This document shows positions 26,448-47,189 of a DNA stretch of 64,000 bases, piece after piece. The stretch is taken from IMG/VR virus record IMGVR_UViG_3300028887_000102, positions 16,595 to 80,594 of that record; one strand, 5' to 3'. Source of the stretch: a virus. Its lineage: Duplodnaviria > Caudoviricetes. Numbering within the stretch: the stretch's first letter is position 1; every line of letters begins with the position of its first letter. The notes under the pieces were generated by a model that had not been told where the DNA came from, did not search any database, and saw nothing but the letters and a program-made list of their open reading frames with translations. Position numbers and translations under genes: made by a program.

Positions 26448-26702
26448 CTAGTTCAACCAATCGGGCTTCGGGAATCTATCGGTGTAGGTAATTTCATCCC
26501 GGTCTTGAGTATCAATGTTGTGGGCATCATCCCAATATTTTAAAAGGTTTTCTTCTGCCGGCAGATAGCAGATGATGATGGCTTTCTTCATATCTCCGGT
26601 GTAGCCCGAAATCCAGTACGGCATCTGGATTGTCTTCAAGTCCACAAGGGGTCTTGGGTCTTCTGCGGAATTTGTATAGAAGCGATAGCGTTTGTATTTC
26701 AT
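26448..26702 (-). CDS. Hypothetical protein
   Basis: ATGA overlap with the upstream minus-strand gene. Confidence 0.7.
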   Translation of the reverse strand: MKYKRYRFYTNSAEDPRPLVDLKTIQMPYWISGYTGDMKKAIIICYLPAEENLLKYWDDAHNIDTQDRDEITYTDRFPKPDWLN

Positions 26703-27130
26703 TTGTTTAATTCCTTTTTGTAGTGAGTTGCTATTTGTGTTAATCGTCTTTCTCTTTTATTGAGTCGCATTACTTTTGTCTGCATCTTCGTGTATGCTTT
26801 TAATGTCTCGCTTGGAACCGGATATGCTTCTCTATAAGAATCCATAAGCGATGGGTACTTTCTACGATAACTAGCACATTTTGAATCTAGTACCAACCAA
26901 GCTCGTTTAGTAATGTCTATTAAGTATAGGCATCTCTTGTACTTGTATCGTAAGAGAATCTTTTTGAGTTGTGCGAAAGCGGCATCCGCATCATTGCGAG
27001 TATAGTAATCGCATTCGTCAAGATGGCGAATATCTACATCCCCTGCAACCCTTTCGACTTGCTCACAAGACCAATAGATTCTTTCGGGTGTGTAGATTTC
27101 AAGTTTATCGCAGAGCATTGGATTTTCCAT
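26699..27130 (-). CDS. Paralog family, class B (YKYKRCL)
   Basis: CDKLE...YYTRNDADAAFAQL...RYKYKRCL. Confidence 0.7.
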   Translation of the reverse strand: MENPMLCDKLEIYTPERIYWSCEQVERVAGDVDIRHLDECDYYTRNDADAAFAQLKKILLRYKYKRCLYLIDITKRAWLVLDSKCASYRRKYPSLMDSYREAYPVPSETLKAYTKMQTKVMRLNKRERRLTQIATHYKKELNK

Positions 27131-27567
27131 TATTCGTAGTTCTTCGCTTTTTCCCTACACTTATGTTCAACGACACGCATCTTCTCTGCAAAGTCATAGC
27201 ATTTCTTTGACATCTCCACATTGCCGTTGTGCAAGTGGGTCATAGATAGATTGTGATATTGATTAGACATATCCCTTGCACGGATTGCTCTTGTTATCCA
27301 GAGTGTGTGTTGCACTACATCTATCTTTTGTCTATAATGGAAAGCAATACCATACGCCATTTTTTCGGATTTATAATATCGCTCAAGTTGCGATACTAAT
27401 GTGTGGTTGTCATCCACAAGTTCCTTGATGGCTTCATCCGCATCTTTCTTTGGATAGAACTCCCCGGTCACAACAACGATATTGTCATTGGATGGCTTAT
27501 CGCTCTTGATTGATTCCGCTGGAACTTGGTATTGTGCCGTGATTGAATGTAATTCTTGGAATTTCAT
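27130..27567 (-). CDS. Paralog family, class A (LW..RA.RA...VE.KC.EKA)
   Basis: FYPKKDADEAIKEL; TLWITRAIRAR; VVEHKCREKAKNY. Confidence 0.7.
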   Translation of the reverse strand: MKFQELHSITAQYQVPAESIKSDKPSNDNIVVVTGEFYPKKDADEAIKELVDDNHTLVSQLERYYKSEKMAYGIAFHYRQKIDVVQHTLWITRAIRARDMSNQYHNLSMTHLHNGNVEMSKKCYDFAEKMRVVEHKCREKAKNYE

Positions 27568-27574
27568 AATGTAC

Positions 27575-27826
27575 CTACTTGTATGTTTCGGCTTTCTTAT
27601 GGCAGATGTCTTCTACCTTGTTGAACTTGTCTGCCCACTTGAAATTATCCTTGTATTCCAAGCGATGCATCCATACCCTAGACCAAGCATCCGCATTGCT
27701 TGCTCTAGTGAGAAACAAGGCGTGGTTCATAGTCTTAATTATTTCATCTACCTTTTCTGCCGGGTAGTAAAGTTTATCGCCATCGGGGGTGCTAATCGTG
27801 ACCGGTTTCAAATCTTCAAAAATCAT
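27575..27826 (-). CDS. Paralog family, class A
   Basis: YYPAEKVDEII; ALFLTRASNA; KVEDICHKKAETY. Confidence 0.7.
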   Translation of the reverse strand: MIFEDLKPVTISTPDGDKLYYPAEKVDEIIKTMNHALFLTRASNADAWSRVWMHRLEYKDNFKWADKFNKVEDICHKKAETYK

Positions 27827-27975
27827 TTAGCCATCCTTTCGTAGCAATCTTTGCAGACCATAACAAGTTTGCCACGCTTTGTTTTAGTTATTATGGAGTT
27901 CTGGCGATATGTAATGCTTTTGCACTTGTAGCATTTGATTTCGTTAGCCTTACGGCATCTTTCTTCAAATGTCAT
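27823..27975 (-). CDS. 50-aa zinc-finger microprotein
   Basis: IKCYKCKS...MVCKDCYER; ATGA overlap. Confidence 0.55.
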   Translation of the reverse strand: MTFEERCRKANEIKCYKCKSITYRQNSIITKTKRGKLVMVCKDCYERMAK

Positions 27976-27983
27976 TATCTGTT

Positions 27984-28358
27984 TCATTTTTGTTCCTCCA
28001 ATTTATTCTCCCAATAGTTTTGTACCTTATCCCAGAACGCACAATGTTTTTCAATATATTCTTGTTTCCAAGTTCTATCCAAAGTATCGTAGTAGTTAAA
28101 CCTCTGCCGGGCATATTCAATTCTCAAAAGACACAAAGCTCTATGGGCATCCGCTAATTTTGATTCTGCATAGTTCCTTTCGGAAAGGAACAGTTTTGCA
28201 TGGTGCTCGTGTAGGAATGCTTGTGATTCGGCAGAATCCAGTTTGACAGTCAATTCCGAAATGGCTTCATCCACATCGCCCTTTCCATACATCTGCAATG
28301 TGATGGCAGCACCTTTTGGAACGATGGTTTCGGCTTTAAGTTTTTTGTACTTGTACAT
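27984..28358 (-). CDS. Paralog family, class A (divergent)
   Basis: MYGKGDVDEAISEL; RALCLLRIEYAR; WDKVQNYW. Confidence 0.65.
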   Translation of the reverse strand: MYKYKKLKAETIVPKGAAITLQMYGKGDVDEAISELTVKLDSAESQAFLHEHHAKLFLSERNYAESKLADAHRALCLLRIEYARQRFNYYDTLDRTWKQEYIEKHCAFWDKVQNYWENKLEEQK

Positions 28359-28359
28359 A

Positions 28360-28770
28360 TTATAAATGCTCCAATTTACATTCACAAACAAATTCTACAT
28401 TATCCCAAATGTCAATCCATTCGTTAATAGTTCTTTTGGTCTTGGATGCATTCGTGTAGATGCTACCATCCGTGATGCCGTTGATGTCATATTTGGTTTT
28501 ACCATCATCTTTGTAGAAAGCATCTCGCGTTGTCCATAACGATGCGGCTATCCTAGCAACTTTTGCTCTTGATTTCCATAGGGCATATTCTTTACTTTGG
28601 CAGATACCGGCTAATTCGTCGATGACTGCATCCGTATCTTCTTTCGGGTACATCTCATAGACACCCCCATTGCATCCCCAATATTCCCCAGCAAACTTTT
28701 CGGATTCCAATTTGCTATGGGCATAGTCCACCAAGGATTGCTTGTCGCATTTGTTTATTCCTTTTTGCAT
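28360..28770 (-). CDS. Paralog family, class A
   Basis: MYPKEDTDAVIDEL; ALWKSRAKVAR; WDNVEFVCECK. Confidence 0.7.
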   Translation of the reverse strand: MQKGINKCDKQSLVDYAHSKLESEKFAGEYWGCNGGVYEMYPKEDTDAVIDELAGICQSKEYALWKSRAKVARIAASLWTTRDAFYKDDGKTKYDINGITDGSIYTNASKTKRTINEWIDIWDNVEFVCECKLEHL

Positions 28771-29102
28771 AAATATGAATCCGCTTTATCCCTGCATAGC
28801 CGTTCAACCTTGTTCCACTTTTGCTTGAGTTCTTCATATTCCTTGGCTTTTTGTAAATCGCCACGGAAGTATCTCCAACCATGTGCAAGAGTTCCGTTAT
28901 AGCAAGACATACTAAAAGCATTTTCGGCACGGACAATCCATATCGTTCGCTTGAGTTGCCGATTTTCGTCTTTCATTTCGGTAATGGCTTCATCTACCTG
29001 GGATTTCGGGTAGAAGTCTTCCACATCTTTGGATGCAAAGTTTTCGTTAATGTATCGGTTCAACCAATACACATCTTTTGCTTCAAGTTTATCGCATTTC
29101 AT
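28755..29102 (-). CDS. Paralog family, class A
   Basis: MKCDKLE; FYPKSQVDEAITEM; IWIVRAENA; WNKVERLCRDKADSY. Confidence 0.7.
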   Translation of the reverse strand: MKCDKLEAKDVYWLNRYINENFASKDVEDFYPKSQVDEAITEMKDENRQLKRTIWIVRAENAFSMSCYNGTLAHGWRYFRGDLQKAKEYEELKQKWNKVERLCRDKADSYLCKKE

Positions 29103-29439
29103 TTTTGAGTTTCCCTGCCATTTTGAGCCATCGTTTGCTTCGTTCATAATACTTATCGGATTTTTCTCTCCATCGTTTTCTTGCCGCTTCTCTATTGCTT
29201 TCCGATTCCATAGCATCTTCTTCATCTCTATCGGAATCATTGCTTACGGCTACCATTTCCATTCCATATTCCGCAGACAAGGAATGACAAATGGTTGCTT
29301 CTCGCATACAGAACTTTATCTTGTATCGTAAAAGTTCTTGTTGCAGTTTAGCCACCGTTTTATCTACGATGTCCGCTGGGTATAAGGGGCCGGCGAAACC
29401 GAGCATCCCACGATGTTCTTTTAATTCATCACCTAACAT
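29089..29439 (-). CDS. Paralog family, class B (divergent)
   Basis: LYPADIVDKTVAKL; LLRYKIKFCM; RSKRWLKM. Confidence 0.6.
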   Translation of the reverse strand: MLGDELKEHRGMLGFAGPLYPADIVDKTVAKLQQELLRYKIKFCMREATICHSLSAEYGMEMVAVSNDSDRDEEDAMESESNREAARKRWREKSDKYYERSKRWLKMAGKLKNEMR

Positions 29440-29455
29440 TTTGAATCCTTTTGAG

Positions 29456-29539
29456 TTATTTGTGTTTCTTTTTGCCGAGATTTATTACTACAAGAATAAC
29501 CAGAACGCAAATAAGCCAAACTACACCATACTTGAGCAT
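29456..29539 (-). CDS. 27-aa membrane peptide
   Basis: MLKYGVVWLICVLVILVVINLGKKKHK; AAGGAG RBS. Confidence 0.55.
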   Translation of the reverse strand: MLKYGVVWLICVLVILVVINLGKKKHK

Positions 29540-29599
29540 ATTAAACTCCTTTAAAAATTTATGTATGTGTTCATCGTGATTATATACAATCGGACTAGG

Positions 29600-30073
29600 T
29601 TATTTTTTTCTGCAATGGTCGCAGAGTTCCGTGTGGTGCTTTCTAGGATATTCATTCGTAGCATCAATTTTTAGGTAGCGCTTGTTGCACATCGGGCATA
29701 TCGGATAGAGTGAACCACCGTGAGTCAATAAATAATTTCCAAAGGGTATCAAGGATGCAGATAAGTTTTTTGAGTAGCCCCCACCGGGCTTGAACCTAAT
29801 CTCTCTCTTGGATGGCTTGTACTCGCATTCAATAGTGGTGTAGTATAACTGTTTGGTTTTTTTGTCTTTCCAACATTCTTGTATATAGGCATTCTGCCAA
29901 TCGTTAGCATTTTTCCTAGCATCCACCCAATGAAACATAGATTCCCAAGTATGTGGGATGCTATCATTCATTTCAAATTCTTTCGCCTTTTCAAGAGCTT
30001 CTTCAACGGAGTTCGCTTTAACCTGAATGACACACCTTGCTTGTGGTGTTATTTCAATATTGTATGTAGGCAT
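29600..30073 (-). CDS. Hypothetical protein with a C-terminal zinc finger
   Basis: ICPMCNKR...LCDHCRKK. Confidence 0.7.
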   Translation of the reverse strand: MPTYNIEITPQARCVIQVKANSVEEALEKAKEFEMNDSIPHTWESMFHWVDARKNANDWQNAYIQECWKDKKTKQLYYTTIECEYKPSKREIRFKPGGGYSKNLSASLIPFGNYLLTHGGSLYPICPMCNKRYLKIDATNEYPRKHHTELCDHCRKK

Positions 30074-30074
30074 A

Positions 30075-30566
30075 TTACTTTCCCCGATTCTTATTGCAGA
30101 TTCTATCCGACCTATCCTTGTAATATGCGGTAATTACGGCATTTAGACTATAATCGCCCTGCATATTCTTGAATGTCTTCGGCTTGTTTGTGAATGTCTG
30201 CAAGTCCGAAATGAACTGTTTAATTCCAGTCCATTCATCGTTTACACGCTTATAGGCTTCTTTGGTTGTTTTGATGGCACATTCTTGAGTGACGAACCAT
30301 TGAATGCTTTCATTGAGTTCCGTCAATTTTCTGCCCTCAAGTTTGAAAGGGTATCTGCCATCTCCCCAAGTTTGGGAGTTGCAACGAATCATACCCTTAC
30401 ACCACGGCAAAAGAATGTCTCCGAACTTTCCACCCGGATAGAAGTATTCAAACGGGATTTTAAGTTTCTTGAGAGCCTTTCCAAGTTCGTGAATCGCGTC
30501 GATGTACTTTGATTTTTCGCATTTGCTTTTGTCGGTGCAACCGAGGATTTCTTTCTTTTTAGCCAT
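30075..30566 (-). CDS. Hypothetical protein
   Basis: GGAG RBS; 163 aa. Confidence 0.7.
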   Translation of the reverse strand: MAKKKEILGCTDKSKCEKSKYIDAIHELGKALKKLKIPFEYFYPGGKFGDILLPWCKGMIRCNSQTWGDGRYPFKLEGRKLTELNESIQWFVTQECAIKTTKEAYKRVNDEWTGIKQFISDLQTFTNKPKTFKNMQGDYSLNAVITAYYKDRSDRICNKNRGK

Positions 30567-30858
30567 TGGTATTTTCTCCGTTTAGAAATTTTTTAAGTTG
30601 TTCGGGTGTTATCTTGGATTTGTCTATGATGAATGTTAATGGTTCTTTAAGTTCTCTTTGTACGATGAGTTCGGACACGGCATTTACTTTTTCTAAAATT
30701 TCGTTGTAGGCGATAGCCTTTTTTTCATCTGGAAGAATATTCCACTTGGCATTCAAAGCATCCCTGCGGGCTTTAATATCCCGGAGCATACTCCCAATGG
30801 GTTCAACATCCTTGTATTTTTCAAAAGGGCTTTCGTTTAAGGGAATCAATTCAATCAT
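30559..30858 (-). CDS. Hypothetical protein
   Basis: AAGGAG RBS before MIELIP. Confidence 0.65.
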   Translation of the reverse strand: MIELIPLNESPFEKYKDVEPIGSMLRDIKARRDALNAKWNILPDEKKAIAYNEILEKVNAVSELIVQRELKEPLTFIIDKSKITPEQLKKFLNGENTNG

Positions 30859-30868
30859 ATAGGTCTCC

Positions 30869-31189
30869 TTACCAGTTGCGAGTAATCCATTTCGGTACAA
30901 GAACGAACTTGACAGTGCAAGGACTACCGTCTTCATTAACATAGTGGTCGTTAATCATAACTTTGCATTTGGATTTCGGGGCATAAACGAAACGATGCTT
31001 CGATATGAAATCGTGTCGTTCGCCCATATCAAATTTCCAAGCTCTCTCCGTTTCGGAATCCACCGGGAACATTCCGCAGTCAATATCCAGATGGTCAAAA
31101 TCGGTTTCCATTCTTTTGATGGCAGACAAGTATTCGCTTACCTTTGTGATGGTGTCAAACACTTTGAGATAGGTGCTTATTTTCTTCAT
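30869..31189 (-). CDS. Hypothetical protein
   Basis: First gene after the minus-strand promoter. Confidence 0.7.
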   Translation of the reverse strand: MKKISTYLKVFDTITKVSEYLSAIKRMETDFDHLDIDCGMFPVDSETERAWKFDMGERHDFISKHRFVYAPKSKCKVMINDHYVNEDGSPCTVKFVLVPKWITRNW

Positions 31190-31219
31190 AGCGGGTGTCC
31201 TTATGATTATCCGCTAACC

Positions 31220-31248
31220 AATATAACTAAATATCACAAAGATGTCAA
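31220..31248 (-). promoter_or_regulatory. Sigma70-type promoter, copy 4 (minus strand)
   Basis: Reverse complement reads TTGACA-tctttgtgatatttagt-TATATT. Confidence 0.85.
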
Positions 31249-31316
31249 GATATTTTTGTAAAAATATTTAATTAGACATTCCCGAAAAAAAAAATCAATT
31301 ATTTTTACGAGACTAC

Positions 31317-31345
31317 TTGACAACCCTTTGATATTTAGTTATATT
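31317..31345 (+). promoter_or_regulatory. Sigma70-type promoter, copy 5
   Basis: TTGACA-accctttgatatttagt-TATATT. Confidence 0.85.
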
Positions 31346-31368
31346 CAACGATACATCATAATCAAACA

Positions 31369-31821
31369 ATGATGGAGAAAAAGATGCGTCCAGATAACTG
31401 CAATGGTAAGAATCGTGAAATTCGCTTGACCCGCGAAGAAATCTTTGATATGCTCAATTCTGAAAGGGATAAGGCATTGGGGGTGGGCGATGCTCGTCTT
31501 GTTGCGATGTATGACAATGTGATTCAAAGTTATGTCACGAAGTTAAAACATATTCGGGATATGAATGGTAGCGGATATAAGTATGTCCGGTTCTGCAATG
31601 TCCAACAACGATGGGTGCCGGCACGTGCCGCCGAAGAACTCTGCAAAGTTCCGATTAAGAAACGAAAGGTGCTTGACACTATTCTTATGGATGGAAAGAT
31701 TACACGAATGATTGCTACGGCTACCGCAAAGGATGGCTCTATCACGACTCTTGACATCAATTATAAGGATGGTACTGTTGTCATCAATGCTAGTAGTAAG
31801 CAATCGGTGGGAGATGCATAA
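31369..31821 (+). CDS. Hypothetical protein
   Basis: First ORF after the promoter. Confidence 0.65.
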   Translation: MMEKKMRPDNCNGKNREIRLTREEIFDMLNSERDKALGVGDARLVAMYDNVIQSYVTKLKHIRDMNGSGYKYVRFCNVQQRWVPARAAEELCKVPIKKRKVLDTILMDGKITRMIATATAKDGSITTLDINYKDGTVVINASSKQSVGDA

Positions 31822-32204
31822 TGCCCGAAGCAACGAAGATTTATAAGCGAAAGAAGCCGTTGAATGATGTGATGGCTACCTATATGTTAGGGGTCAATTT
31901 TGCCGCTATCGTTAAGCAACTTGTTATCGGGTTGGCTTGCAAGAAATGTACTAATGACTATAACAATCCTAAAAGTAATTTCCATCTAACTAAAGACAAG
32001 AAAACGGTTATCGTGGAATTGTGGGATGAACATTTGATGGATATGCCGTCCGAATTAGATAGGTTCAAGCGTAATTTCACGATGTACCCGAAGCCCACGG
32101 CAACCTATACTTTGGAGTTTATTGTTCGTTTGGACGCTCAAGAAGTGTTGAGTTATTTGAACTTGTATATGCCTACCATAGAAAGAATCGAGGAGTTGTT
32201 CTAA
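31821..32204 (+). CDS. Hypothetical protein
   Basis: TAATG overlap. Confidence 0.7.
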   Translation: MPEATKIYKRKKPLNDVMATYMLGVNFAAIVKQLVIGLACKKCTNDYNNPKSNFHLTKDKKTVIVELWDEHLMDMPSELDRFKRNFTMYPKPTATYTLEFIVRLDAQEVLSYLNLYMPTIERIEELF

Positions 32205-32827
32205 TGCAGTATGCTGGTGTAGAACTCATAGACTTTGAATCCGAAAAGCCGCAGATATTCGACCCACCCCGGTTGATGTTTGTATGGAACACGGAGCATT
32301 TTAAAGTTCCATCCGTACAAGAGATTCGGTGCTATGACCCAATGCTTGAAAGACCTTTTATGGAATCGGATTATGTGGGGCGATGGACTCACGGCGCGGT
32401 TATTGATGATAGTTTGATGCCGACCATAAAGAATCTTCTTGTGAATAATAATCCGTATAAGGATGATGATGTCCGTGTACAACGGAACAAGTTGGTGTGC
32501 TGGGATGATAAGGAAAAGAAATGGAATGTTATTCTGGATAACCTTCCGTTTTCGTTTGGCGATGTGTCCGTGAATGTTATCTATATGACCGGTACATTGA
32601 TTGATGGTATGAAACTTGTGTTTACCTTGTTGTTCTATGATTCGGAACATTATATTGATGGCAGGGCACGTGTTTTCCCGGTACTTGTGTTTTTAAAGGA
32701 TGATAATTCCCTTGTGTATGAACGATACCATACATCTACGGAATTGAATGTAAGAGTGGGCGATTGGAATTATCGCCGTATCATTGAATTGTCTAGGATT
32801 AACTGGAATATGAACGAGATTCGTTAA
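32204..32827 (+). CDS. Hypothetical protein (N-terminal paralog of 45409..45867)
   Basis: KPQIFDPPRLMFVWN. Confidence 0.7.
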   Translation: MQYAGVELIDFESEKPQIFDPPRLMFVWNTEHFKVPSVQEIRCYDPMLERPFMESDYVGRWTHGAVIDDSLMPTIKNLLVNNNPYKDDDVRVQRNKLVCWDDKEKKWNVILDNLPFSFGDVSVNVIYMTGTLIDGMKLVFTLLFYDSEHYIDGRARVFPVLVFLKDDNSLVYERYHTSTELNVRVGDWNYRRIIELSRINWNMNEIR

Positions 32828-32837
32828 AGGAGTTATT

Positions 32838-33221
32838 ATGGGCGTAGATTTGAATTGGGCGGGTAGTCTTTCCTACCCTCGCTTCTATGAAGAACTTGAA
32901 GCCGTTGCTACACAAGTTTTTGGGGCTACGGTATCAAAGGAATATATTGAAGCAAAGAATAAACCGGAGAATAATACTATCACTGGGTATTTCTTTGCGA
33001 ATGCTCATACATCTTGTGATAAGTTTGTGTGGCCCGATGGTACACCCGAAGTATTGAAGACTTTCTTTAGGGCACCAACGGAATATTATGACCCAGAGTT
33101 CGTTAAGGACTTGTGGGCGCTTGTTGAACCCCATGCCGAAAAGGTTGAAGCCTTGAGTGACCAATTCTATGAAGAACTCAAGTGTGATGCTATGTATGGC
33201 GAATCTTGGTGTGTCTGTTAA
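32838..33221 (+). CDS. Hypothetical protein
   Basis: AAGGAG RBS. Confidence 0.7.
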   Translation: MGVDLNWAGSLSYPRFYEELEAVATQVFGATVSKEYIEAKNKPENNTITGYFFANAHTSCDKFVWPDGTPEVLKTFFRAPTEYYDPEFVKDLWALVEPHAEKVEALSDQFYEELKCDAMYGESWCVC

Positions 33222-33230
33222 GGAGACTAT

Positions 33231-33512
33231 ATGAAATATACCGTTATTCTACCACAACTCAAGGTATATGACTTGGCTGATTCCACCGACCATCCCGACG
33301 TGGTATATGGAAAAATTGAAGTTGATGCCGTTATCCGTGACTTGATTCTTGAAAAGGAATCGTTTCATCGCAGGGCTTTGGATGCCGAACGGCGATATTA
33401 CCAGACGATTAGCCAGATTGCTTCGGAAGAACTCAAAAAATTGGAAGATGAATCCACAACTATGGAAGCATCTCTTGATACTTTGAGTAATGTCTTGGGG
33501 GGTCGTGTATGA
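33231..33512 (+). CDS. Hypothetical coiled-coil protein
   Basis: AAGGAG RBS. Confidence 0.7.
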   Translation: MKYTVILPQLKVYDLADSTDHPDVVYGKIEVDAVIRDLILEKESFHRRALDAERRYYQTISQIASEELKKLEDESTTMEASLDTLSNVLGGRV

Positions 33513-33901
33513 GTGATGCAGTCTATGACAAGTTGCGAATGGTCATCCAGACAAAAAGGGATATGGACAATCCCCTGCAACCTTATGGCGTGACGGTTCA
33601 ATATAGTATTATCAACCCGGATGATACGGAGTTCCATTCCAGAATGGATGTTTCTGATGTTCGCGTGGTTTGTGATTACGAAATTGCTAAAGCCGTATTG
33701 GATGAATCCGAACGGAAGTCCAAGAAGTTGTTGTGGATGTCTAGGGCTTTAAGGGCTTCACATATTTCTTGTCTTGCTTTTCAAGGTGAGTATATACCGT
33801 TGGATAACTACGGAAATGAACTTGATTGGCGAATTATGTATCAAAAATGGAAAAAGGTAGAAGAATTATGTCTTAAAAAGGCAAGGGAGTATGATATATG
33901 A
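33509..33901 (+). CDS. Paralog family, class A
   Basis: LLWMSRALRAS; WKKVEELCLKKAREY. Confidence 0.7.
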   Translation: MSDAVYDKLRMVIQTKRDMDNPLQPYGVTVQYSIINPDDTEFHSRMDVSDVRVVCDYEIAKAVLDESERKSKKLLWMSRALRASHISCLAFQGEYIPLDNYGNELDWRIMYQKWKKVEELCLKKAREYDI

Positions 33902-34269
33902 TGACATTGGCTCTTGATGAATATAAGGTGGTTAAAGGCAATGAGGGTTATATCATTGCTTGCAATTACGAAATGAAACGAGCTTACGATGCCGATGAAG
34001 CGGATAAGGAAATCGACCGCCTTATTTGTATGGCAGGGAATAATGCTAGGGGTTATCGTATTGCACGCAGGGCTTTGTGGCAATCCAGAGTTCGCAATGC
34101 CGAAATTATGATGAAGCACTTGTCATTCCTTGTTGAATGCTTTAGGGATTCTAACATTACCACAGAAGCCGCCATTTATAATTCCAAGTTAAATAACTGG
34201 AAATGGGTTCACGATGCTTGTTTGAAAAAGTATGAAACTCTTTGTAAGGAAAAAGGCAATGCAGTATAA
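33898..34269 (+). CDS. Paralog family, class A
   Basis: YDADEADKEIDRL; ALWQSRVRNA; WKWVHDACLKK. Confidence 0.7.
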   Translation: MMTLALDEYKVVKGNEGYIIACNYEMKRAYDADEADKEIDRLICMAGNNARGYRIARRALWQSRVRNAEIMMKHLSFLVECFRDSNITTEAAIYNSKLNNWKWVHDACLKKYETLCKEKGNAV

Positions 34270-34516
34270 ATATATGTCTTTTGTGTCATTCTGCCGTTGG
34301 TGTAATGATAGAGCATCCGATGGATTTTGGGGCGCACAATCTGCCCTTACTTGCATACGAATTGCGGATGATGTCAATAAGAAATGGTTTTCTTGGAGAC
34401 GCGAAAGATATTGGCGTAAAAACTGGGAAAAGGGTGTTCGTGAGCAAATTGTGAATCCTACCGAACGGGCTACGGCTCAATATTATAAGGCTATGGGGCT
34501 ATGCGAAGACTACTAG
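34259..34516 (+). CDS. Hypothetical protein
   Basis: MQYKYMSFVSFCRWCNDRASDGFW. Confidence 0.65.
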   Translation: MQYKYMSFVSFCRWCNDRASDGFWGAQSALTCIRIADDVNKKWFSWRRERYWRKNWEKGVREQIVNPTERATAQYYKAMGLCEDY

Positions 34517-34614
34517 CAATTCTCTTTAAACGAAATTGGCAAGAAATCCCACCCATCTTTAGTGTGTGGGATGAATTGTCCGTATTGAAACATATAGACT
34601 TTTAGAGAAAATAC

Positions 34615-37207: not shown

Positions 37208-37738
37208 ATGGAACGACAAGAATTGAAAGTATATGATGCCTATATCATGGAAGTAGATTTCCACCCAGACGATGCCCCCGTCAAGTTGGATGCTATTGTG
37301 TCTAGCAATAGTTCCATAGCGGAAAACGATTGGTCTGGCGAAGCCGCTTGTTTCGCGTGCTATAAGAAAGATGAAGCGGATGCGGAGATTGATTATTGGA
37401 AGCAAGAGAACCGAATATCCAGGAATCTAGCGAATATGGCTTATTCTCTGCAACAACAAGAGAAAGCCGACTTGCAGAAGACTAGGGTAGAACTCCGTGC
37501 AACCAAGATGGCATTGTGGCATTCTAGGGCTAACCGGGCTTTTGAAAAGATTCTATTGTTTACATCCTTGATTCGGGAATACAAAACTTATGTGTATATT
37601 GATGGTCTTGAGAAGAAATTAGGCGATGGCTATTCTAGTCAATTCCGAACACCCCACGAATGGGTTAAGATATTTGAGAGAGTTGAAAAGAAGTGCCGGG
37701 AAAAAGCGGAGATATACGATGACCGAGAAGATGGTTAA
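37208..37738 (+). CDS. Paralog family, class A
   Basis: YKKDEADAEIDYW; ALWHSRANRA; ERVEKKCREKAEIY. Confidence 0.7.
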   Translation: MERQELKVYDAYIMEVDFHPDDAPVKLDAIVSSNSSIAENDWSGEAACFACYKKDEADAEIDYWKQENRISRNLANMAYSLQQQEKADLQKTRVELRATKMALWHSRANRAFEKILLFTSLIREYKTYVYIDGLEKKLGDGYSSQFRTPHEWVKIFERVEKKCREKAEIYDDREDG

Positions 37739-37907
37739 AAGAGCTTTGTGGTTGGCTAGGGCAATCCGTGCTTGTGAGAAATCGGAGATTTTAAATGAAC
37801 GGAGTCTTTTAGCCCTGCCGGAATATCGGCGTTATTGGCGGGATAAGTGTAGGGCTTGGATTCGTGTTGAAGAACTATGCCGTAAGAAAGCGGATTCGTA
37901 CCTATGA
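37719..37907 (+). CDS. Paralog family, class A (minimal core)
   Basis: RALWLARAIRACE; WIRVEELCRKKADSYL. Confidence 0.7.
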   Translation: MTEKMVKRALWLARAIRACEKSEILNERSLLALPEYRRYWRDKCRAWIRVEELCRKKADSYL

Positions 37908-38887: not shown

Positions 38888-39040
38888 TATACAAGATTGA
38901 ATTGAACATTGATTCTAATAAACTTACGGATGCCGAAGTGAATGCTTTGGATGCCATCTTGGATAAGGCTATTCCTGAAATTGAGAAAGTATGCAAGTTG
39001 AAATCCGTTTCCGTAAACTCTATGCTACACTGGAGCAAAG

Positions 39041-39232
39041 ATGAAGATATTACTTGAATTACCCGATGACTTTAAGGAACATTATGACTTTGACAAGTTC
39101 AAGGATTCTCTTGGCAGAGTTTCTTGTGATTTGAAAGAACACGAAGTTCTTATGTCCGGCAATTATGAACAAGAACTTATGGATGCTCTTTACAAGGCAT
39201 TCCCTAATTCAAAGGAGATGAAAGATGGCTGA
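39041..39232 (+). CDS. Hypothetical protein
   Basis: GGAG RBS. Confidence 0.6.
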   Translation: MKILLELPDDFKEHYDFDKFKDSLGRVSCDLKEHEVLMSGNYEQELMDALYKAFPNSKEMKDG

Positions 39233-39395
39233 TTCAATTCCGTTGCCTAAAGATGATTTCGGTAATATCGCAGTTGCTTGTATTACTTGTGGTAATCCTA
39301 TTCGTATTCGTGGTACAAGAGTGTTTCCTATATGCAGAGATTGTATTGCAATGTTGAGAGATATTATTGCCGAAAGGAAAAATAAGACCGAATGA
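39225..39395 (+). CDS. Zinc-finger microprotein
   Basis: VACITCGNP...PICRDCI; overlaps both neighbours. Confidence 0.55.
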   Translation: MADSIPLPKDDFGNIAVACITCGNPIRIRGTRVFPICRDCIAMLRDIIAERKNKTE

Positions 39396-39646
39396 AAAAG
39401 TGTGACTATTGTCAATCGGGTAAATCCTTGTATCATAGTGGTGGTTGGTTTGACTCCGTTGATGTTGATATTAGGGATGGAGACCAGTTGCGATTTTCGT
39501 ACCCGGATGATGAGTGCGAAGATTATTATAGCATCACGATTGATATTAAGTTTTGCCCGATGTGTGGGAGACCACTTAAACCGGAAAACATAAAACATCG
39601 CATACACCTTAAACCATCGGATTACATTGAGCATAGTGGGAGATAG
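39392..39646 (+). CDS. CxxC...FCPMCGR zinc-ribbon protein 1
   Basis: MKKCDYC...IDIKFCPMCGRPL. Confidence 0.7.
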   Translation: MKKCDYCQSGKSLYHSGGWFDSVDVDIRDGDQLRFSYPDDECEDYYSITIDIKFCPMCGRPLKPENIKHRIHLKPSDYIEHSGR

Positions 39647-39647
39647 T

Positions 39648-39857
39648 ATGTGCCAATACTGCGAATTGAATAATCACGGAATGGGTAAGCCCCTAGCAAC
39701 TAATAACAAGGGTAATTTTAAATATCCCCTTGTTGATTTGTGGCGTGACAATGAAACAAGGGATAATAAGATTGTGCTTGTTGTCCATTATGATGAAGAA
39801 GAACCCCTTACTATCGGTATCAAATTTTGTCCGATGTGTGGCAGACCTTTGGAGTAA
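39648..39857 (+). CDS. CxxC...FCPMCGR zinc-ribbon protein 2
   Basis: MCQYC...IGIKFCPMCGRPL. Confidence 0.7.
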   Translation: MCQYCELNNHGMGKPLATNNKGNFKYPLVDLWRDNETRDNKIVLVVHYDEEEPLTIGIKFCPMCGRPLE

Positions 39858-39860
39858 TGT

Positions 39861-40070
39861 ATGTGTTGCTTCTGCGATGGTACAACATCAATGCATTCCG
39901 TCCGGGGCTATGATATTAGTCCTAGAGTAGTTAAGACGGATGCTTGGGCTAGTGCTAGTGGCTGGTGCATCGAGTTTGAGACACCCGATGATTCGGGGTG
40001 GACTACTACCCAAATTGAGATTACTAATTGTCCTATGTGCGGAAGAAAATTAGGAGAGCTCGATGTCTAA
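39861..40070 (+). CDS. CxxC...CPMCGR zinc-ribbon protein 3
   Basis: MCCFC...IEITNCPMCGRKL. Confidence 0.7.
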   Translation: MCCFCDGTTSMHSVRGYDISPRVVKTDAWASASGWCIEFETPDDSGWTTTQIEITNCPMCGRKLGELDV

Positions 40071-40296
40071 TTATTGTATTCGGTTTCAAGACATTTTTGG
40101 GAAAATAAAGAATAGGTGTATCTACAATGCCGTGGATGAAAATGATGCTATCGCAAAGTTTAATGCAGACCCCCGAAAGGATATGGCTTCCATTATCGTG
40201 GTTTCCCCACTTAAACCGATAGACATTGACGAGTGGCATAACGCAGAGATTACGAATAAGACATATATGAAAGGTTTGATTAGGAGACACGAATGA
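40063..40296 (+). CDS. Hypothetical protein
   Basis: GGAG RBS; overlaps neighbours. Confidence 0.6.
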   Translation: MSNYCIRFQDIFGKIKNRCIYNAVDENDAIAKFNADPRKDMASIIVVSPLKPIDIDEWHNAEITNKTYMKGLIRRHE

Positions 40297-40544
40297 GTTC
40301 TTATGATGACATTTTGCATTGGGTTGTAAACTATTTTGTTGATGAAACTATGACTAGCCCCGAATGTCTAGGCAAGAATACTACCTTATCTGAATTAGGT
40401 CGTGATGCGTTTGTGGATAGGGTATTGCTGGTGGTAGCCATAGAAAGTGAGTACGATGTGATTATTAACGATGACGAACGAGATTCGTGGGAAATATTAG
40501 ACGATGTAGCAAAAACAATTTTCAAAAAGGAACATAAGGTATGA
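40293..40544 (+). CDS. Acyl carrier protein-like protein lacking the phosphopantetheine serine
   Basis: TLSELGRDAFVDRVLLVVAIESEYDVIINDDE aligns with ACP [27 protein letters not shown]. Confidence 0.65.
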   Translation: MSSYDDILHWVVNYFVDETMTSPECLGKNTTLSELGRDAFVDRVLLVVAIESEYDVIINDDERDSWEILDDVAKTIFKKEHKV

Positions 40545-41743
40545 TAGAAATTAAAGGTAAATTCAACGTGGCAAAGGTTTTTACCGATAACCTTGAATCC
40601 GAAGCCTATAAGCAAATCTTGAACTTGATGAACCAAAAATTTGCGGAGGGTTCAAAGTTTGCTATTATGCCCGATGCCCATGCAGGGGTTGGGTGTGTTA
40701 TCGGTTTGACGATGAAACTTGTAGATAAGGTTGTTCCAAACCTTGTAGGCGTGGACATTGGATGCGGTATGTTGGTCTTGAAGATTGACAAGTCGTTTAA
40801 AATGGATTTGCCGAAAATGGATAAGATTTGGCATCAAGAAATTCCATCGGGTATGAACCATCGTACCAAGAAGCATCGTTTCGCAGATACCGTGCCACTC
40901 GAAGATTTGGTCACACCGGTTAATGCCGATAAGCTCCGTTTGTCGGTGGGTTCTCTTGGTAGTGGAAACCATTTCGGAGAAGTGGATGTGGATGACGATG
41001 GCAACTATTACATTGTAATCCATTCGGGGTCCAGACATCTTGGTATTGAAGTTTGCAAGTTCCACCAGAACCGAGCGATTGAATACCATCGGGGCAATCG
41101 TGACATTGAAAAGGACATCATCTTGCGATGCAAAGCCGAGGGCAGGGTCAAGGATATTGAAAAGGAACTCCGTGATTTCCACGAAGCGAAGACCCCGATT
41201 CCTAATGAGTTGGCATACCTTGAGGGTTCGTATATGCAAGATTACTTGGCAGATATGCGAATCGCTCAAGATTTCGCCATCAAGAATCGTGAAGCGATGA
41301 TGCAAGTTGTCATTGATTCTATGGGTATTAAGAACCACCATATCCTTGGTAAATTCTGCACTATCCATAACTACATTGACTTGGATGCTATGGTTCTTCG
41401 CAAGGGTTCTATTTCCCTGCAACAAGACCAAATGGCGATTATCCCGATGAATATGCGCGATGGCTCTTTGATTGTCCGTGGAAAGGGAAACCCCGAATGG
41501 AATTTCTCTGGTCCGCATGGAGCAGGGCGTTTGATGTCTCGTTCAAAGGCAAAGGAAACTTTGACGATGGAAGATTTCAAGTCTTCAATGTCCGGCATCT
41601 ACACGACTTGTGTAAGCACCAAGACTCTTGACGAATCCCCAATGGCTTATAAGCCTATGGATGAAATCGTTGAGAACATCCGGGACTCCGCAGACATTGT
41701 ACGGACTATCAAGCCCATCTATAACTTTAAGGCAGAAGAATAA
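40541..41743 (+). CDS. rtcB: RtcB-family RNA ligase
   Basis: MPDAHAG.GCVIG, GVDIGCGM, GSLGSGNHF.E, HSGSR, HNY, PHGAGR, DESPMAYK. Confidence 0.95.
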   Translation: MIEIKGKFNVAKVFTDNLESEAYKQILNLMNQKFAEGSKFAIMPDAHAGVGCVIGLTMKLVDKVVPNLVGVDIGCGMLVLKIDKSFKMDLPKMDKIWHQEIPSGMNHRTKKHRFADTVPLEDLVTPVNADKLRLSVGSLGSGNHFGEVDVDDDGNYYIVIHSGSRHLGIEVCKFHQNRAIEYHRGNRDIEKDIILRCKAEGRVKDIEKELRDFHEAKTPIPNELAYLEGSYMQDYLADMRIAQDFAIKNREAMMQVVIDSMGIKNHHILGKFCTIHNYIDLDAMVLRKGSISLQQDQMAIIPMNMRDGSLIVRGKGNPEWNFSGPHGAGRLMSRSKAKETLTMEDFKSSMSGIYTTCVSTKTLDESPMAYKPMDEIVENIRDSADIVRTIKPIYNFKAEE

Positions 41744-41769: not shown

Positions 41770-41798
41770 TTGACATCTCCTTGATAATTAGTTATATT
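41770..41798 (+). promoter_or_regulatory. Sigma70-type promoter, copy 6
   Basis: TTGACA-tctccttgataattagt-TATATT. Confidence 0.85.
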
Positions 41799-45399: not shown

Positions 45400-45408
45400 G
45401 AGATAATT

Positions 45409-45867
45409 ATGTCGTGGACTTGGAAAGTAGATGGCTATGAAGTTGAATGCCGACAAGTGACTAAACCACAAGTATTCGACCCACCGAAGATGATGCTAGT
45501 TAATACTCGCGGTAAACTTGTAATGAAAAAGGTGTATGCTATTCTTGCACCAACCGAACGAGCGAATTTTCCGGTAGTGTGCGATGATGACCATTATGCC
45601 ATTTGTTGTGAAATCCCGAAGCCCCGCAGGGCTACTCATCGTGAACTTTCTGAATGGTGTGCCAAGGGCAATGGTCAATGGAAGCAATCGGGCGATACTT
45701 ATTGGAGCGCCTATAATTATGATGCAAACATCAAAGAAGATGAACCGATTCGTGATGACACGATGATTCGTAAATGGGGAACATCCGAATGGATTGAACC
45801 CGATGCTATTGCGATGGGGCTTCCGAATCCGTATGGTGGGAGGGCTATTCGTGAAAGCGATACCTAA
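45409..45867 (+). CDS. Hypothetical protein (paralog of 32204..32827)
   Basis: KPQVFDPPKMMLVN; TAGGAG RBS. Confidence 0.7.
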   Translation: MSWTWKVDGYEVECRQVTKPQVFDPPKMMLVNTRGKLVMKKVYAILAPTERANFPVVCDDDHYAICCEIPKPRRATHRELSEWCAKGNGQWKQSGDTYWSAYNYDANIKEDEPIRDDTMIRKWGTSEWIEPDAIAMGLPNPYGGRAIRESDT

Positions 45868-46120
45868 AGGAAAGGTGTATGACTGCATTTACTATCGTGG
45901 CGATAACTCTTTAGAAGTTATTCGCTTTTGTGGTGGAAAGGCTCATACCCCAAGTTCGTATAATACTACTTGGCCCCCCATCTATATTACTGCAACCAAT
46001 GGTTGTTGCTATACGGCACCGGTAGGTTCGTATATTGTTAGAGATGGGGATTCTCTTGTGGTGTACGATGAGCAATCCTTTGAACAACAGTTTGACCTTT
46101 ATCAAGGTGGTGCAAATTGA
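45833..46120 (+). CDS. Conserved phage protein, paralog of 43244..43519
   Basis: CIYYRGDNSLEVIRF...VGSYIVRDG...EQSFEQQF; start uncertain. Confidence 0.55.
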   Translation: MVGGLFVKAIPKGKVYDCIYYRGDNSLEVIRFCGGKAHTPSSYNTTWPPIYITATNGCCYTAPVGSYIVRDGDSLVVYDEQSFEQQFDLYQGGAN

Positions 46121-46260
46121 GATGCGATAAATGTAATGCCCCGTTATATTGTGGTAGTTGCAGGGAAGCTCCGGGTGGTTTACCCTTGTTTGTCTGCGAT
46201 ACTTGCTACAATAAGTTAAAAGCCGAACTTGAGAAGAAACCCGAAAAGGAATCTAAATGA
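46117..46260 (+). CDS. Zinc-finger microprotein
   Basis: RCDKCNAPL...FVCDTCYNK; TTG start overlaps the upstream stop. Confidence 0.5.
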   Translation: MRCDKCNAPLYCGSCREAPGGLPLFVCDTCYNKLKAELEKKPEKESK

Positions 46261-46646
46261 TAAAATTACCATTGCCTTGCTTTGAGGCATCCGTTCATAT
46301 AACCATTGATGAACGATGTGGCTGGTTCAATAAAGAAGTGTATCTCAAGGAACACGTGGATGCTACTCTGGATGAACTATTAGCATTGAATGAGTTTTAC
46401 CGAAAGAATATGAGTCGCTTCGGTACATTAGCGGCTAGGCGATTCTTTGCCATCTATACGGCTAATCGTTCCTTGTGGTTCACTAGAATGGAACGAGCCA
46501 AGGCAATGGCAGCCATTGATAATTTTGAATCTTACAAGTGTAAACATCCCTGCGGTGTTTGGAACGGAAAGGATTATGATGATTGGGCGGTGGCTTGGAA
46601 AAATGTTGAAACCTTATGCTTAAAACAAATGGAGAAATGGAAATGA
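46257..46646 (+). CDS. Paralog family, class A
   Basis: YLKEHVDATLDEL; SLWFTRMERAK; WKNVETLCLKQ. Confidence 0.7.
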   Translation: MIKLPLPCFEASVHITIDERCGWFNKEVYLKEHVDATLDELLALNEFYRKNMSRFGTLAARRFFAIYTANRSLWFTRMERAKAMAAIDNFESYKCKHPCGVWNGKDYDDWAVAWKNVETLCLKQMEKWK

Positions 46647-46948
46647 AGCATATTTATGAAAGTTTGAAAGATTATGCCATCCATCACGGAAACGAAACCT
46701 ATTATCCTAAAGATGTAGTTTACGCGGCTATCAATGAACTAATTGCCATCAATCATCGTCAAGGTGGTGTTATTTCTAGTCTCAAGGATTTGTTCTCACG
46801 ATTCACATACAATACAACTCTCCGCAGAATCCAGTATGTGCGGAATCCCCCACATCATAAGATGTTCTCTCCGGATTGTATTCCTTTCTTCAAAAGAGAT
46901 GGCTATAAAATCTTTAAACAACTTGAAGACGATAAGCACGGTAAGTAG
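46643..46948 (+). CDS. Hypothetical protein with the paralog-family N-terminal motif
   Basis: YYPKDVVYAAINEL. Confidence 0.6.
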   Translation: MKHIYESLKDYAIHHGNETYYPKDVVYAAINELIAINHRQGGVISSLKDLFSRFTYNTTLRRIQYVRNPPHHKMFSPDCIPFFKRDGYKIFKQLEDDKHGK

Positions 46949-46949
46949 T

Positions 46950-47189
46950 ATGGATGACGCAGAATTTTGGAAAGAACAATATCATACTTGCCGAAAGATA
47001 ATCGACGAACTTGAATCCGAACGAAAGTATCTAAAGAAAGCGTTGTGGTTATCTAGGGCAGAACGAGCTAGACTAGAGATTCATAGGGCTTACCCCTATG
47101 AATGGTCTATTGAGAGTTGTAAGTGCTGGGAGAAAGCCGTACAACTTTTTACCAAGAAAGCAAGGGATGTTGATAATGGCGAAAGATAG
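46950..47189 (+). CDS. Paralog family, class A
   Basis: KALWLSRAERARL; WEKAVQLFTKKAR. Confidence 0.65.
   Translation: MDDAEFWKEQYHTCRKIIDELESERKYLKKALWLSRAERARLEIHRAYPYEWSIESCKCWEKAVQLFTKKARDVDNGER

Follow-up and report, generated by a model that had tools for sequence, protein, structure and literature searches.

Three kinds of described systems come close to the proteins reported here. The T4 MobD.x/Tk.x helical-hairpin paralogues (Pfam DUF7438) are small, multi-copy early proteins of obscure function, and multi-copy families of T4-like and jumbo phages form tandem arrays behind sigma-70-like promoters in plastic early regions, combining constant and variable segments with exchange of parts. 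In beta-type prefoldin subunits (PF01920), two long helices joined by a short beta-structured connector pack against each other as an antiparallel coiled coil. The DivIVA-like domain (DivIVA, GpsB, FilP, Scy and PolyDIV; PF05103) is defined by the pattern GY[DN]xx[QE]V[DN]xx[ILV]xx[ILV], in which the Tyr and the second Asp bond across the DivIVA dimer and the Gly before the Tyr is needed for the crossed-loop contact (PMC9858780).

The window analysed here is a stretch of 64,000 nt (positions 16,595 to 80,594 of IMG/VR record IMGVR_UViG_3300028887_000102) from an uncultured jumbo phage of about 215 kb found in cattle gut. An earlier note on it had described eleven ORFs with a common helical core, and these ORFs do share the motifs Y.K..[AV]D, LW..RA.RA and W.KVE, with coordinates at or near those in that note. 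These class A members are listed below with their E-values against the A2 profile, which holds external homologues only, and with orthologues, including those on the sibling jumbo contig L011.

27130..27567, minus strand: class A member of 145 aa, with the cap MKFQELH, N-motif, long stalk and hairpin; A2 E 1.8e-16; L011 orthologue 63% identical, omega 0.22.
27575..27826, minus strand: class A member of 83 aa, minimal and nearly stalkless, with a short loop; A2 E 5e-8; public protein P0012 is 99% identical.
27984..28358, minus strand: class A member of 124 aa, with the most diverged C-terminal helix (W for C); A2 E 7e-10; orthologue P0016 of 124 aa, 77% identical; omega 0.21.
28360..28770, minus strand: class A member of 136 aa, whose long structured loop belongs to the widespread 'D-I-N-G' type; pLDDT 83.2, loop 87-114 above 90; A2 E 9e-16; omega 0.25.
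28755..29102, minus strand: class A member, probably of 115 aa from an internal M-K-C-D; orthologue P0004 of 115 aa starts M-K-C-D-E-L-K; A2 E 6e-18; groups with P0011 and P0031 (SH-aLRT 95).
33509..33901, plus strand: class A member of 130 aa with a degenerate N-motif; A2 E 2e-8; L011 orthologue 92% identical, omega 0.10.
33898..34269, plus strand: class A member of 123 aa, the most diverged copy; A2 E 5e-3, A3 profile E 2e-16; omega 0.24.
37208..37738, plus strand: class A member of 176 aa, with long N-variable part, long stalk and long loop; A2 E 8e-23; N half orthologous to the N half of a single L011 gene.
37719..37907, plus strand: bare hairpin core of 62 aa, its start overlapping the end of 37208 by 20 nt, with GGAG upstream; A2 E 3e-8; 69% identical to the C half of a 156-aa L011 gene; omega 0.26.
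46257..46646, plus strand: class A member of 129 aa; AlphaFold pLDDT 82.7; A2 E 1.4e-10.
46950..47189, plus strand: class A member of 79 aa, short, with a weak N-motif and F replacing the conserved C; A2 E 5e-4; jackhmmer E 4e-19 to 8e-15 (two seeds).

They are placed in tandem, as noted before, in a minus-strand group of five (27130-29102) and in the plus-strand pairs 33509-34269, 37208-37907 and 46257-47189. Two starts were corrected because of the orthologues and of the overlap with the upstream gene: ORF 28755, open up to 29240, most likely starts at 29102 and encodes 115 aa rather than 161, and ORF 27984, which earlier ran to a TTG at 28391, most likely begins at the ATG at 28358 and encodes 124 aa.

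The A2 profile was searched against 743 real and 7,430 shuffled ORFs, matching all eleven members with E from 8e-23 to 5e-3 and no decoy at E≤10. By jackhmmer, started from three different seeds, 10 of the 11 were recovered with none of the 7,430 shuffled decoys at E≤1, and the shared core is thus significant against shuffled controls. A search of 1.84 billion proteins returned 426 representative clusters at 50% identity (E≤1e-3), and the external member P0009 alone gave 469 matches; hundreds of these homologues carry the three motifs in register. Judged from the sequences, the eleven ORFs are members of one family of phage proteins. That they are genuine, anciently diverged paralogues of an undescribed family of small soluble phage proteins, with the architecture given below, is very probable. 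The members share only 18-32% identity pairwise within the window, individual ones weakly match several unrelated coiled-coil Pfam families, and 37719 could be a displaced gene fragment, all of which would suit a chance resemblance of low-complexity coiled coils or a set of decaying, functionless remnants. Such an origin is nevertheless extremely improbable given the profile results against decoys, the motifs kept in register by hundreds of homologues and the purifying selection on every orthologous pair, 37719 included; for the family as a whole it is already refuted.

Members were found in phages only, and the source is ruminant-gut metagenomes. Other rumen phages have one to three copies each, against eleven in the window phage, and an A2-based locus search revealed prophage-like relatives in genome bins of Fibrobacter and Kiritimatiellia. 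The earlier statement that no known family is recognisable agrees with the lack of a significant match in Pfam, NCBIfam, PHROGs and PDB; no PHROG, NCBIfam or Pfam profile matched at its curated threshold, and the weak matches are only to coiled-coil families (DivIC, ZapB, Cep57, Cnn_1N), with listed E-values of about 1e-5 or higher. There was no match in 50,697 GenBank phages by megablast with the 21.5-kb region or by tblastn with P0009. Among viral contigs, the single protein 28755 retrieved no relative, while the A2 query did find loci. Longer fused forms were not found at E≤1e-3 among proteins of 337-2000 aa, which is weak evidence, and no named cluster of the protein atlas exceeded 0.9, the structural resemblance being generic. 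Searches of the literature on rumen or Fibrobacter phages and on jumbo-phage paralogues yielded no account of the family. It accounts for hundreds of unannotated protein clusters of ruminant-gut viromes that are absent from the family databases searched.

Between the window phage and the sibling contig L011, omega ranges from 0.10 to 0.26 for every orthologous pair, with dS about 1, near saturation. All orthologous pairs being under purifying selection, the proteins have therefore a maintained function. In the same comparison, also with dS near saturation, the loops have omega of about 0.23 and the helices 0.25-0.31. The earlier note had described a hypervariable insert of 20-50 aa: the length holds, since 19-49 residues separate LW..RA.RA from W..VE in the window copies, whereas hypervariability in the sense of rapid diversification does not, given that loop omega is similar to that of the helices. 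The loops differ between copies but fall into types, several of which recur in unrelated phage contigs. As far as these alignments tell, the loops are under purifying selection between the two phages, with no excess of amino-acid change, which is not what a fast host-defence arms race predicts.

The "large paralog expansion" first reported is correct as to the eleven paralogues, but the set did not arise recently. Most copies score higher against an external homologue than against their best window paralogue, and in a quick tree the window copies are scattered, so they appear to be old lineages rather than the product of a recent burst. In that tree they lie on very long branches (2-5, against a median of 0.63), a pattern that relaxed constraint could also produce.

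Four parts make up each protein. The N-terminal cap M-K-C-D-E-L-K, with a variable piece behind it, is followed by the helix start Y-x-K-x-E-V-D-x-x-I-x-E-L; then come a heptad stalk, which differs in length between members and lies between the first and second motifs, and a C-terminal helical hairpin, conserved in its core and variable in its tip loop. The stalk is a further variable segment beyond the insert noted earlier. The N-termini had been described simply as variable. A variable piece is indeed there, but the wider family conserves the cap as M-K-x-[DQ]-[EK]-L-K, and at least five window copies still show it. AlphaFold models from two subfamilies (46257 and 28360; pLDDT 82.7 and 83.2) predict the conserved C-terminal part with confidence as a helical hairpin, in which a long helix leads through a loop into a second helix that runs back, with strands 13-28 and helices 31-85 and 107-127 in 46257, and with loop 87-114 above pLDDT 90 in 28360. 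The conserved residues of the hairpin occupy a/d-type core positions; therefore the hairpin is the scaffold and the tip loop the variable part. Both the models and this conservation favour the helical-hairpin scaffold with variable loops that had been proposed, and ORF 37719 is, as claimed, the bare core, with the hairpin alone. No transmembrane segment was found (top 19-residue hydropathy 1.2).

The chain would thus be one long helix capped by Y-x-K-x-E-V-D-x-x-I-x-E-L, continuing as the stalk, often with Asn at an 'a' position, up to A-L-W-x-x-R-A. After a tip loop of 19-49 residues, the C-terminal helix W-x-x-V-E-x-x-C-x-x-K-A would fold back on the long helix and form an alpha-hairpin. Conservation is concentrated in the hairpin core and the helix start, while three parts vary: the N-terminal stretch upstream of the Y, the length of the stalk, and the tip loop. 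Asn at the heptad 'a' position is typical of parallel dimers, and dimerisation may take place through the stalk. For annotation these modules offer a handle: the cap, the helix start Y-x3-E-V-D, the stalk, and the hairpin of the ALW/WxxVE core with its typed loops.

The helix start is the feature that recalls DivIVA. In both groups a Tyr, three residues and E-V-D open a long heptad helix (predicted in the phage family) with I and L at +9 and +12, and a short N-terminal element and a loop precede the motif. The Tyr and second Asp are nearly invariant in the phage family, and the heptad positions V(+5), I(+9) and L(+12) are kept. The pattern Yxxx[QE]V[DN]xx[ILV]xx[ILV] occurs in 95 of 261 external members, against 0.05 in shuffles. 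In contrast, the phage proteins lack the Gly at -1 (F/V/M) and the Asp/Asn at +1 (P/L). None of the 261 external and none of the 11 window members has the complete DivIVA-like pattern; when the G is dropped, 17 of the 261 match. The known families are cellular, Gram-positive cell-division proteins without a C-terminal hairpin of the ALW/WxxVE core, and the present family is phage-borne. GpsB came first when the family profile was compared with PDB (E 0.05), hhalign against one GpsB N-domain sequence gave a probability of 16%, and PF05103 is not among the Pfam families listed at E≤0.1 for 90 members scanned. A bolder proposal would see here a highly diverged, phage-borne DivIVA-like branch whose members are obligate parallel dimers. 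With their cap and exchangeable hairpin cassettes they would make up a combinatorial adaptor library, each adaptor fitting a different envelope, division or defence protein of the host, and more than 12 of them would serve the jumbo phage in taking over hosts of DivIVA-less phyla; we consider this improbable. If the resemblance does reflect common descent, the superfamily extends to phages and to hosts beyond Gram-positive bacteria.

The other structural resemblance is to prefoldin. As in the beta-type subunits, two long helices of the phage proteins are predicted to pair as an antiparallel coiled coil, linked by a short connector with beta structure; the differences are the connector, variable here and conserved in prefoldin, and the N-terminal half of the first helix, which stays unpaired in the monomer model. 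The paralogues could accordingly be subunits of a homo- or hetero-oligomeric coiled-coil assembly, either a prefoldin-like chaperone platform or a DivIVA-like scaffold, instead of independent binders. A helix, a structured loop with beta bridges and a helix reproduce the prefoldin beta topology, prefoldin chains (PF01920/PF02996) head the Foldseek results of the 28360 model, an Atlas model for P0009 can be aligned with a prefoldin cluster (TM 0.63), and the DivIVA-like helix start, the GpsB match and the copies that are often adjacent and co-transcribed point the same way. However, the structural matches are all non-significant or generic: Foldseek gave E>1 and TM 0.25-0.39, the prefoldin rows have E 1.2-3.6 and TM 0.24-0.39 (VIA Z 6.9), and neither model has a Foldseek match at E≤1e-3 in BFVD or PDB. 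In the comparison with ESCRT-III/PspA hairpins the best VIA scores are Z 8.7 (9ftl) with one model and Z 7.7 (4abm) with the second, both inside the range of unrelated helical hairpins. Neither prefoldin nor DivIVA models are among the Pfam families listed for the 90 members scanned, and the beta hairpins of prefoldin are a conserved assembly surface, while the loop is the least conserved part here. Many phages have a single copy, and therefore a hetero-oligomer cannot be the general mode. We regard the oligomeric assembly as unlikely, less so than the DivIVA-like library.

Regarding transcription, the earlier note had placed the arrays under shared early promoters. The window contains 10 copies of a promoter-like motif of 29 nt, TTGACA-N6-TGATAWTTAGTTATATT, where 0 are expected, and three of them head units with class A genes:

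31220-31248, minus strand, and 31317-31345, plus strand: divergent pair of 29-nt promoter-like motifs heading the minus- and plus-strand arrays, exact matches.
41770..41798, plus strand: promoter-like motif heading the unit with 46257 and 46950, motif match.

Shared promoters are thus supported at the level of these motifs, which resemble sigma-70 promoters and may act early in infection. Small helical proteins in tandem arrays behind such promoters are what the T4-like and jumbo-phage families also present; no sequence relation with those families was detected (no Pfam or PHROG match), and the present one extends beyond T4-like phages, since small temperate phages of the ruminant gut commonly carry it in 1-3 copies.

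The sibling jumbo contig has 8 copies in 19 kb. The loci of temperate relatives, on contigs of 20-67 kb, have 1-3 copies each, often adjacent, together with genes for integrase, YqaJ, SSB, DNA methylases and, beside the member, an Acb2/Tad1-hairpin gene. The corresponding domain, PF24729, is carried by that neighbouring gene and is not among the 25 listed of the 71 Pfam families matched by the 90 members scanned. Acb2/Tad1-like and methylase neighbours fit an accessory role, which is circumstantial. SSB alone recurs as a neighbour, being located about 2.8 kb upstream in 13 of 29 loci. The position of the gene in temperate phage contigs, downstream of the genes for a YqaJ-type exonuclease and SSB, would suit a protein that acts on nucleic acids or on the machinery of replication, recombination or transcription, for instance an SSB/recombination accessory or an RNA polymerase regulator. 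The median pI of 8.4 (9.8 in the bare core) and the Arg and Lys residues conserved in both hairpin helices are in line with this. On the other hand, net charge is not conserved (-12 to +11, several window copies being acidic), no DNA- or RNA-binding domain was detected by profile searches, the jumbo-phage arrays do not adjoin replication genes, and eleven different regulators of one machine are hard to rationalise. Such a role seems to us somewhat less likely than the oligomeric assembly. A small zinc-ribbon ORF is paired with three window copies and is found so in the sibling phage; as a general two-gene module it was rejected, the pairing being present in 14 of 74 members, mostly of one lineage, and absent from most other loci.

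Putative binding of host proteins is the most likely function of the family; neither a characterised homologue nor a conserved partner gene ties it to a target. Each protein may be an adaptor or inhibitor of a different host, possibly phage, target, contacted through the loop and the N-variable piece, and expressed early in infection. Small temperate phages would carry one to three types, and the jumbo phage would have collected at least eleven. That the proteins are adaptors or inhibitors of host targets is a tentative reading, and the explanation as a whole (old, phage-specific paralogues working as dimeric hairpin adaptors or inhibitors of host targets) is the one we favour while rating it somewhat short of probable. 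Repertoires of this kind in other phages have repeatedly yielded anti-defence and host-takeover activities, and eleven natural variants of one scaffold in one phage make a compact test set.

Five further ORFs of the window share the N-terminal module only and have a different C-module; these include:

26699..27130, minus strand: N-module only (cap and N-motif), with a C-module of the R-Y-K-Y-K-R-C type; A3 E 7e-5, at profile positions 2-51 only.
29089..29439, minus strand: N-module only, with a class B C-terminus; A3 E 5e-4 and alignment.
33231..33512, plus strand: N-module only, 93 aa; A3 E 1.5e-4, positions 10-64.
46616..46948, plus strand: N-module only, 110 aa, between two class A genes; A3 E 2e-3; N-motif profile E 0.016.

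When class A was compared with class B by hhalign, the N-motif alone was aligned (probability 86%). The sibling L011 has one gene of 156 aa where the window has 37208 and the bare core 37719, and this single gene combines the N half of 37208 with the 37719 hairpin. Modules are thus exchanged, and the gene, undivided in one strain but split in the other, shows how such repertoires grow, with hairpin cassettes being exchanged at a conserved boundary.

The eleven ORFs that the earlier note had grouped by a common helical core, here called class A and named by their start coordinates in the window, are all present and alignable over three motifs. Their pairwise identity is only 18-32%, and therefore the significance of the grouping was tested in three ways. 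Most pairs are connected directly by phmmer at E-values of 1e-9 to 1e-3. With three different seeds, jackhmmer was set to search the complete set of 743 ORFs from the six frames of the window, together with ten shuffled versions of every ORF; it converged on 10 of the 11 ORFs with no decoy at E <= 1. A profile made from forty proteins of other phages, without any window sequence (A2), recovered all 11 at E-values of 8e-23 to 5e-3, with no decoy at E <= 10. The alignment is thus significant against shuffled controls, and chance resemblance or decay is ruled out for the family as a whole. Two starts need to be shifted: gene 28755 most likely begins with M-K-C-D at 29102, encoding 115 aa like its orthologue P0004 from the public collection, and gene 27984 most likely begins at 28358, encoding 124 aa like P0016.

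Searches of Pfam, NCBIfam and PHROGs gave no class A match at or above the curated thresholds and only weak coiled-coil matches, in agreement with the earlier view that these proteins belong to no known family; the closest PDB sequence match has an E-value of 0.05. Run against 1.84 billion representative proteins, a profile made from the eleven matches 426 clusters (50% identity) at E <= 1e-3, of which 68 remain at E <= 1e-10, and one relative used as query matched 469 proteins, nearly all unnamed and metagenomic. The consensus of this wider family is sharper than the window's own. It begins with M-K-C-D-E-L-K, a variable piece and Y-x-K-x-E-V-D-A-A-I-A-E-L-K-A-E, continues through a stalk of variable length, L-K-R-A-L-W-L-A-R-A-E-R-A and a variable loop, and ends with W-x-x-x-W-x-x-V-E-R-K-C-R-A-K-A-E-E-Y-K. 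Longer fused forms were looked for among proteins of 337-2000 aa and none was found at E <= 1e-3, and tblastn detected no relative in any of 50,697 GenBank phage records.

The relatives are found on viral contigs of 20-67 kb and on contigs that encode an integrase, YqaJ exonuclease, SSB, DNA methylases, PcfJ and an Acb2/Tad1-hairpin gene; they have the appearance of temperate phages. Genome bins of Fibrobacter and Kiritimatiellia, obtained from rumen and yak omasum, contain four of the loci. Among annotated neighbours, SSB alone is recurrent, about 2.8 kb upstream. Since these loci have one to three copies each, often adjacent, and L011, a 31-kb contig of a sibling phage, has eight within 19 kb in the same order as in the window, the set of the jumbo lineage, with eleven full members, is unusually large. 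Arrays of small orphan early proteins are a known phenomenon in large phages. Class A is a genuine and widespread family of phage proteins, not described before, that is clearly modular and is expanded in the phage of the window.

The loops cannot be aligned between paralogues, and they had been described as hypervariable; comparison with the L011 orthologues does not bear out fast evolution. Every class A gene has an omega of 0.10-0.26 in this comparison, similar to the neighbouring genes. In pooled segments, dN is highest in the loops (0.32), but so is dS, resulting in an omega of 0.23, and the two hairpin helices have 0.25-0.31, these segment values being coarse because dS is near saturation. 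The same loop types are found in unrelated phages: D-I-N-G of 28360 in P0013, P0020 and P0024, G-W-K-M-F-R-G of 28755 in P0011 and P0031, and K-H-P-C-G of 46257 in P0037. For most window members, the best paralogue in the window is outscored by an external homologue, and in a quick tree the eleven copies occupy very long branches and need eight label changes. The set in the window is an assemblage of old, distinct types and does not result from a recent burst.

A helical hairpin scaffold, as proposed before, is predicted by two agreeing AlphaFold models from different subfamilies. The model of 46257 (pLDDT 82.7) has two short strands at 13-28 followed by helices at 31-85 and 107-127 that are separated by a loop. 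That of 28360 (pLDDT 83.2) has a helix at 10-25 predicted with low confidence, a long one spanning 43-86 and a last one at 115-135, the loop at 87-114 being predicted with pLDDT above 90 and beta bridges. In these models, the long helix opens with the first conserved motif and carries A-L-W-x-x-R-A in its C-terminal half, and the last helix, in which W, W, V, C, A and Y recur every 3-4 residues, packs back on it, so that the conserved residues mostly form the hairpin core. In the monomer, the long helix is unpaired in its N-terminal half, which shows a heptad pattern of V, I, L, N, L; many members have the Asn at a core position. In leucine zippers, such a pattern favours parallel dimers, and from it we predict that class A proteins dimerise. 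None of them has a hydrophobic segment, and their net charge varies from -12 to +11. Fold searches with both models returned only generic helical hairpins (best VIA Z 7.8 and 8.7, Foldseek E > 1). Prefoldin subunits top the Foldseek list for the 28360 model, and an Atlas model was aligned to a prefoldin cluster with a TM of 0.63, neither being significant.

Using the family profile against PDB, GpsB N-domains rank first (E 0.05-0.1), with G-Y-R-R-E-E-V-D of GpsB aligned to Y-x-K-x-E-V-D of class A. In the DivIVA-like domain, the Tyr of one chain bonds to the second Asp of its partner, the Gly allows the loops to cross and the Val is the first residue of the core (PMC9858780). The Tyr and the corresponding Asp are nearly invariant in class A, with V, I and L following in register, but the Gly and the first Asp/Asn are absent. 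The full DivIVA-like pattern, GY[DN]xx[QE]V[DN]xx[ILV]xx[ILV], occurs in 0 of 261 family members. Without the Gly, the core Y-x3-[QE]-V-[DN]-x2-[ILV]-x2-[ILV] occurs in 95 of the 261, against 0.05 in shuffles. Given these missing residues, the absence of PF05103 among the matches listed for 90 members scanned at E <= 0.1, and an hhalign probability of 16% against a single GpsB sequence, class A is not filed as DivIVA-like. It may work like DivIVA, as a capped parallel dimer, and the two may share a common ancestor. An ORF at 63816-64000, cut by the contig end, has the near-canonical DivIVA-like motif G-Y-D-K-D-E-A-D-x-x-I-x-x-L and matches PF05103 (E 0.0017) and, weakly, the class A N-profile (E 6e-4).

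Five ORFs have only the N-terminal module (26699, 29089, 33231, 46616 and a truncated ORF at the window end). The following ORFs, called class B, have in common an R-Y-K-Y-K-R-C-L helix and a K-W-L/basic C-terminus:
26699-27130: class B ORF
29089-29439: class B ORF
36073-36570: class B ORF
36539-36784: class B ORF

Two of them also bear the class A N-module. Because the N-motif alone is common to class A and the R-Y-K-Y-K-R-C ORFs in profile-profile comparison (probability 86%, 19 columns), this module is joined to at least two unrelated C-terminal modules; no relation was detectable between the class B C-modules and class A.

A single 156-aa gene of L011 corresponds to the first ~100 residues of 37208 (62% identity) followed by the hairpin of 37719 (69%), the junction being just before A-L-W, and the DNA match between L011 and the window stops at 37464 and restarts at 37746. 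Possibly the window's lineage gained a second hairpin cassette, with its long loop, stop and new start; alternatively, a deletion in L011 could have fused the two adjacent genes. Under either history, the 62-aa bare core 37719 represents the hairpin module of a gene that was once, or is elsewhere, full-length, and it retains GGAG and ATG and has an omega of 0.26. The early region is 72-80% identical to L011 and the adjacent structural genes 95%. By coordinates, the structural genes at 21013-26399 are 94.7% identical and the small-gene region at 26464-41139 only 72-80%, the divergence shifting sharply at the border of the two modules.

A 29-nt promoter-like motif, TTGACA-N6-TGATAWTTAGTTATATT, in which the -35 hexamer is perfect and the -10 hexamer nearly so, has ten copies in the window against 0 expected:
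2924, 14692, 20886, 31220 (minus), 31317 (plus), 41770, 47485, 51280, 54932 and 57992: copies of the 29-nt motif

The copies at 31220 and 31317 diverge, pointing at the two main class A arrays, and the one at 41770 heads the unit with 46257 and 46950, the next being at 47485. The proposal of common early promoters stands as far as motif copies head the arrays; from their sigma-70-like form, calling them early is only plausible, since the motif is found in small-gene regions and also in the structural region (2924, 14692 and 20886). A strong 12-bp stem-loop flanked by T and A runs (26405-26431), situated where the structural genes and the minus-strand array converge, is probably a bidirectional terminator.

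Class A proteins are soluble and probably dimeric, with three variable surfaces on a constant scaffold. They are encoded by phages only, as accessory genes of presumably early operons. Purifying selection maintains each type, and the genes are single in small phages and numerous in the jumbo phage. Such features fit a putative repertoire of candidate adaptors or inhibitors, each of which would bind a different host or phage target, and this is the best-supported reading. An oligomeric assembly, or action at nucleic acids or the replication machinery, would be weaker explanations.

Three small CxxC...CxxC zinc-ribbon ORFs sharing [VF]-C-x-[DET]-C-Y lie directly upstream of class A genes:
27823-27987, minus strand: zinc-ribbon ORF, upstream of 27575
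37064-37204, plus strand: zinc-ribbon ORF, upstream of 37208
46117-46260, plus strand: zinc-ribbon ORF, upstream of 46257

This pairing is retained in the sibling phage and is not general in other phages. Four small ORFs in a row at 39225-40070 form another, separate set of tandem paralogues, all of them ending in a C-P-M-C-G-R-[PK]-L zinc-ribbon motif. One of these, 39225-39395, resembles small zinc-ribbon ORFs that come after class A genes in two Fibrobacter loci, L007 and L008.

The IMG/VR contig containing the window, which covers its bases 16595-80594, has 80.6 kb and is rated 37% complete by CheckV, indicating a phage genome of roughly 215 kb. Also encoded on the contig are:
6410-8692: contractile tail sheath
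34650-35849: TnpB-type element
40541-41743: RtcB ligase

DNA near-identical to the window is present in bovine-gut metagenomes of at least 12 studies, and in 3 of these metagenomes the class A arrays are colinear with it. Two other bovine-gut strains lack the TnpB element region (34530-35854), 34529 being joined to 35855 in their contigs. L011 also lacks this element and has its own TnpB gene at 12705-13808 of that contig, between the orthologues of 26448 and 25987, so the element is mobile within the phage lineage.
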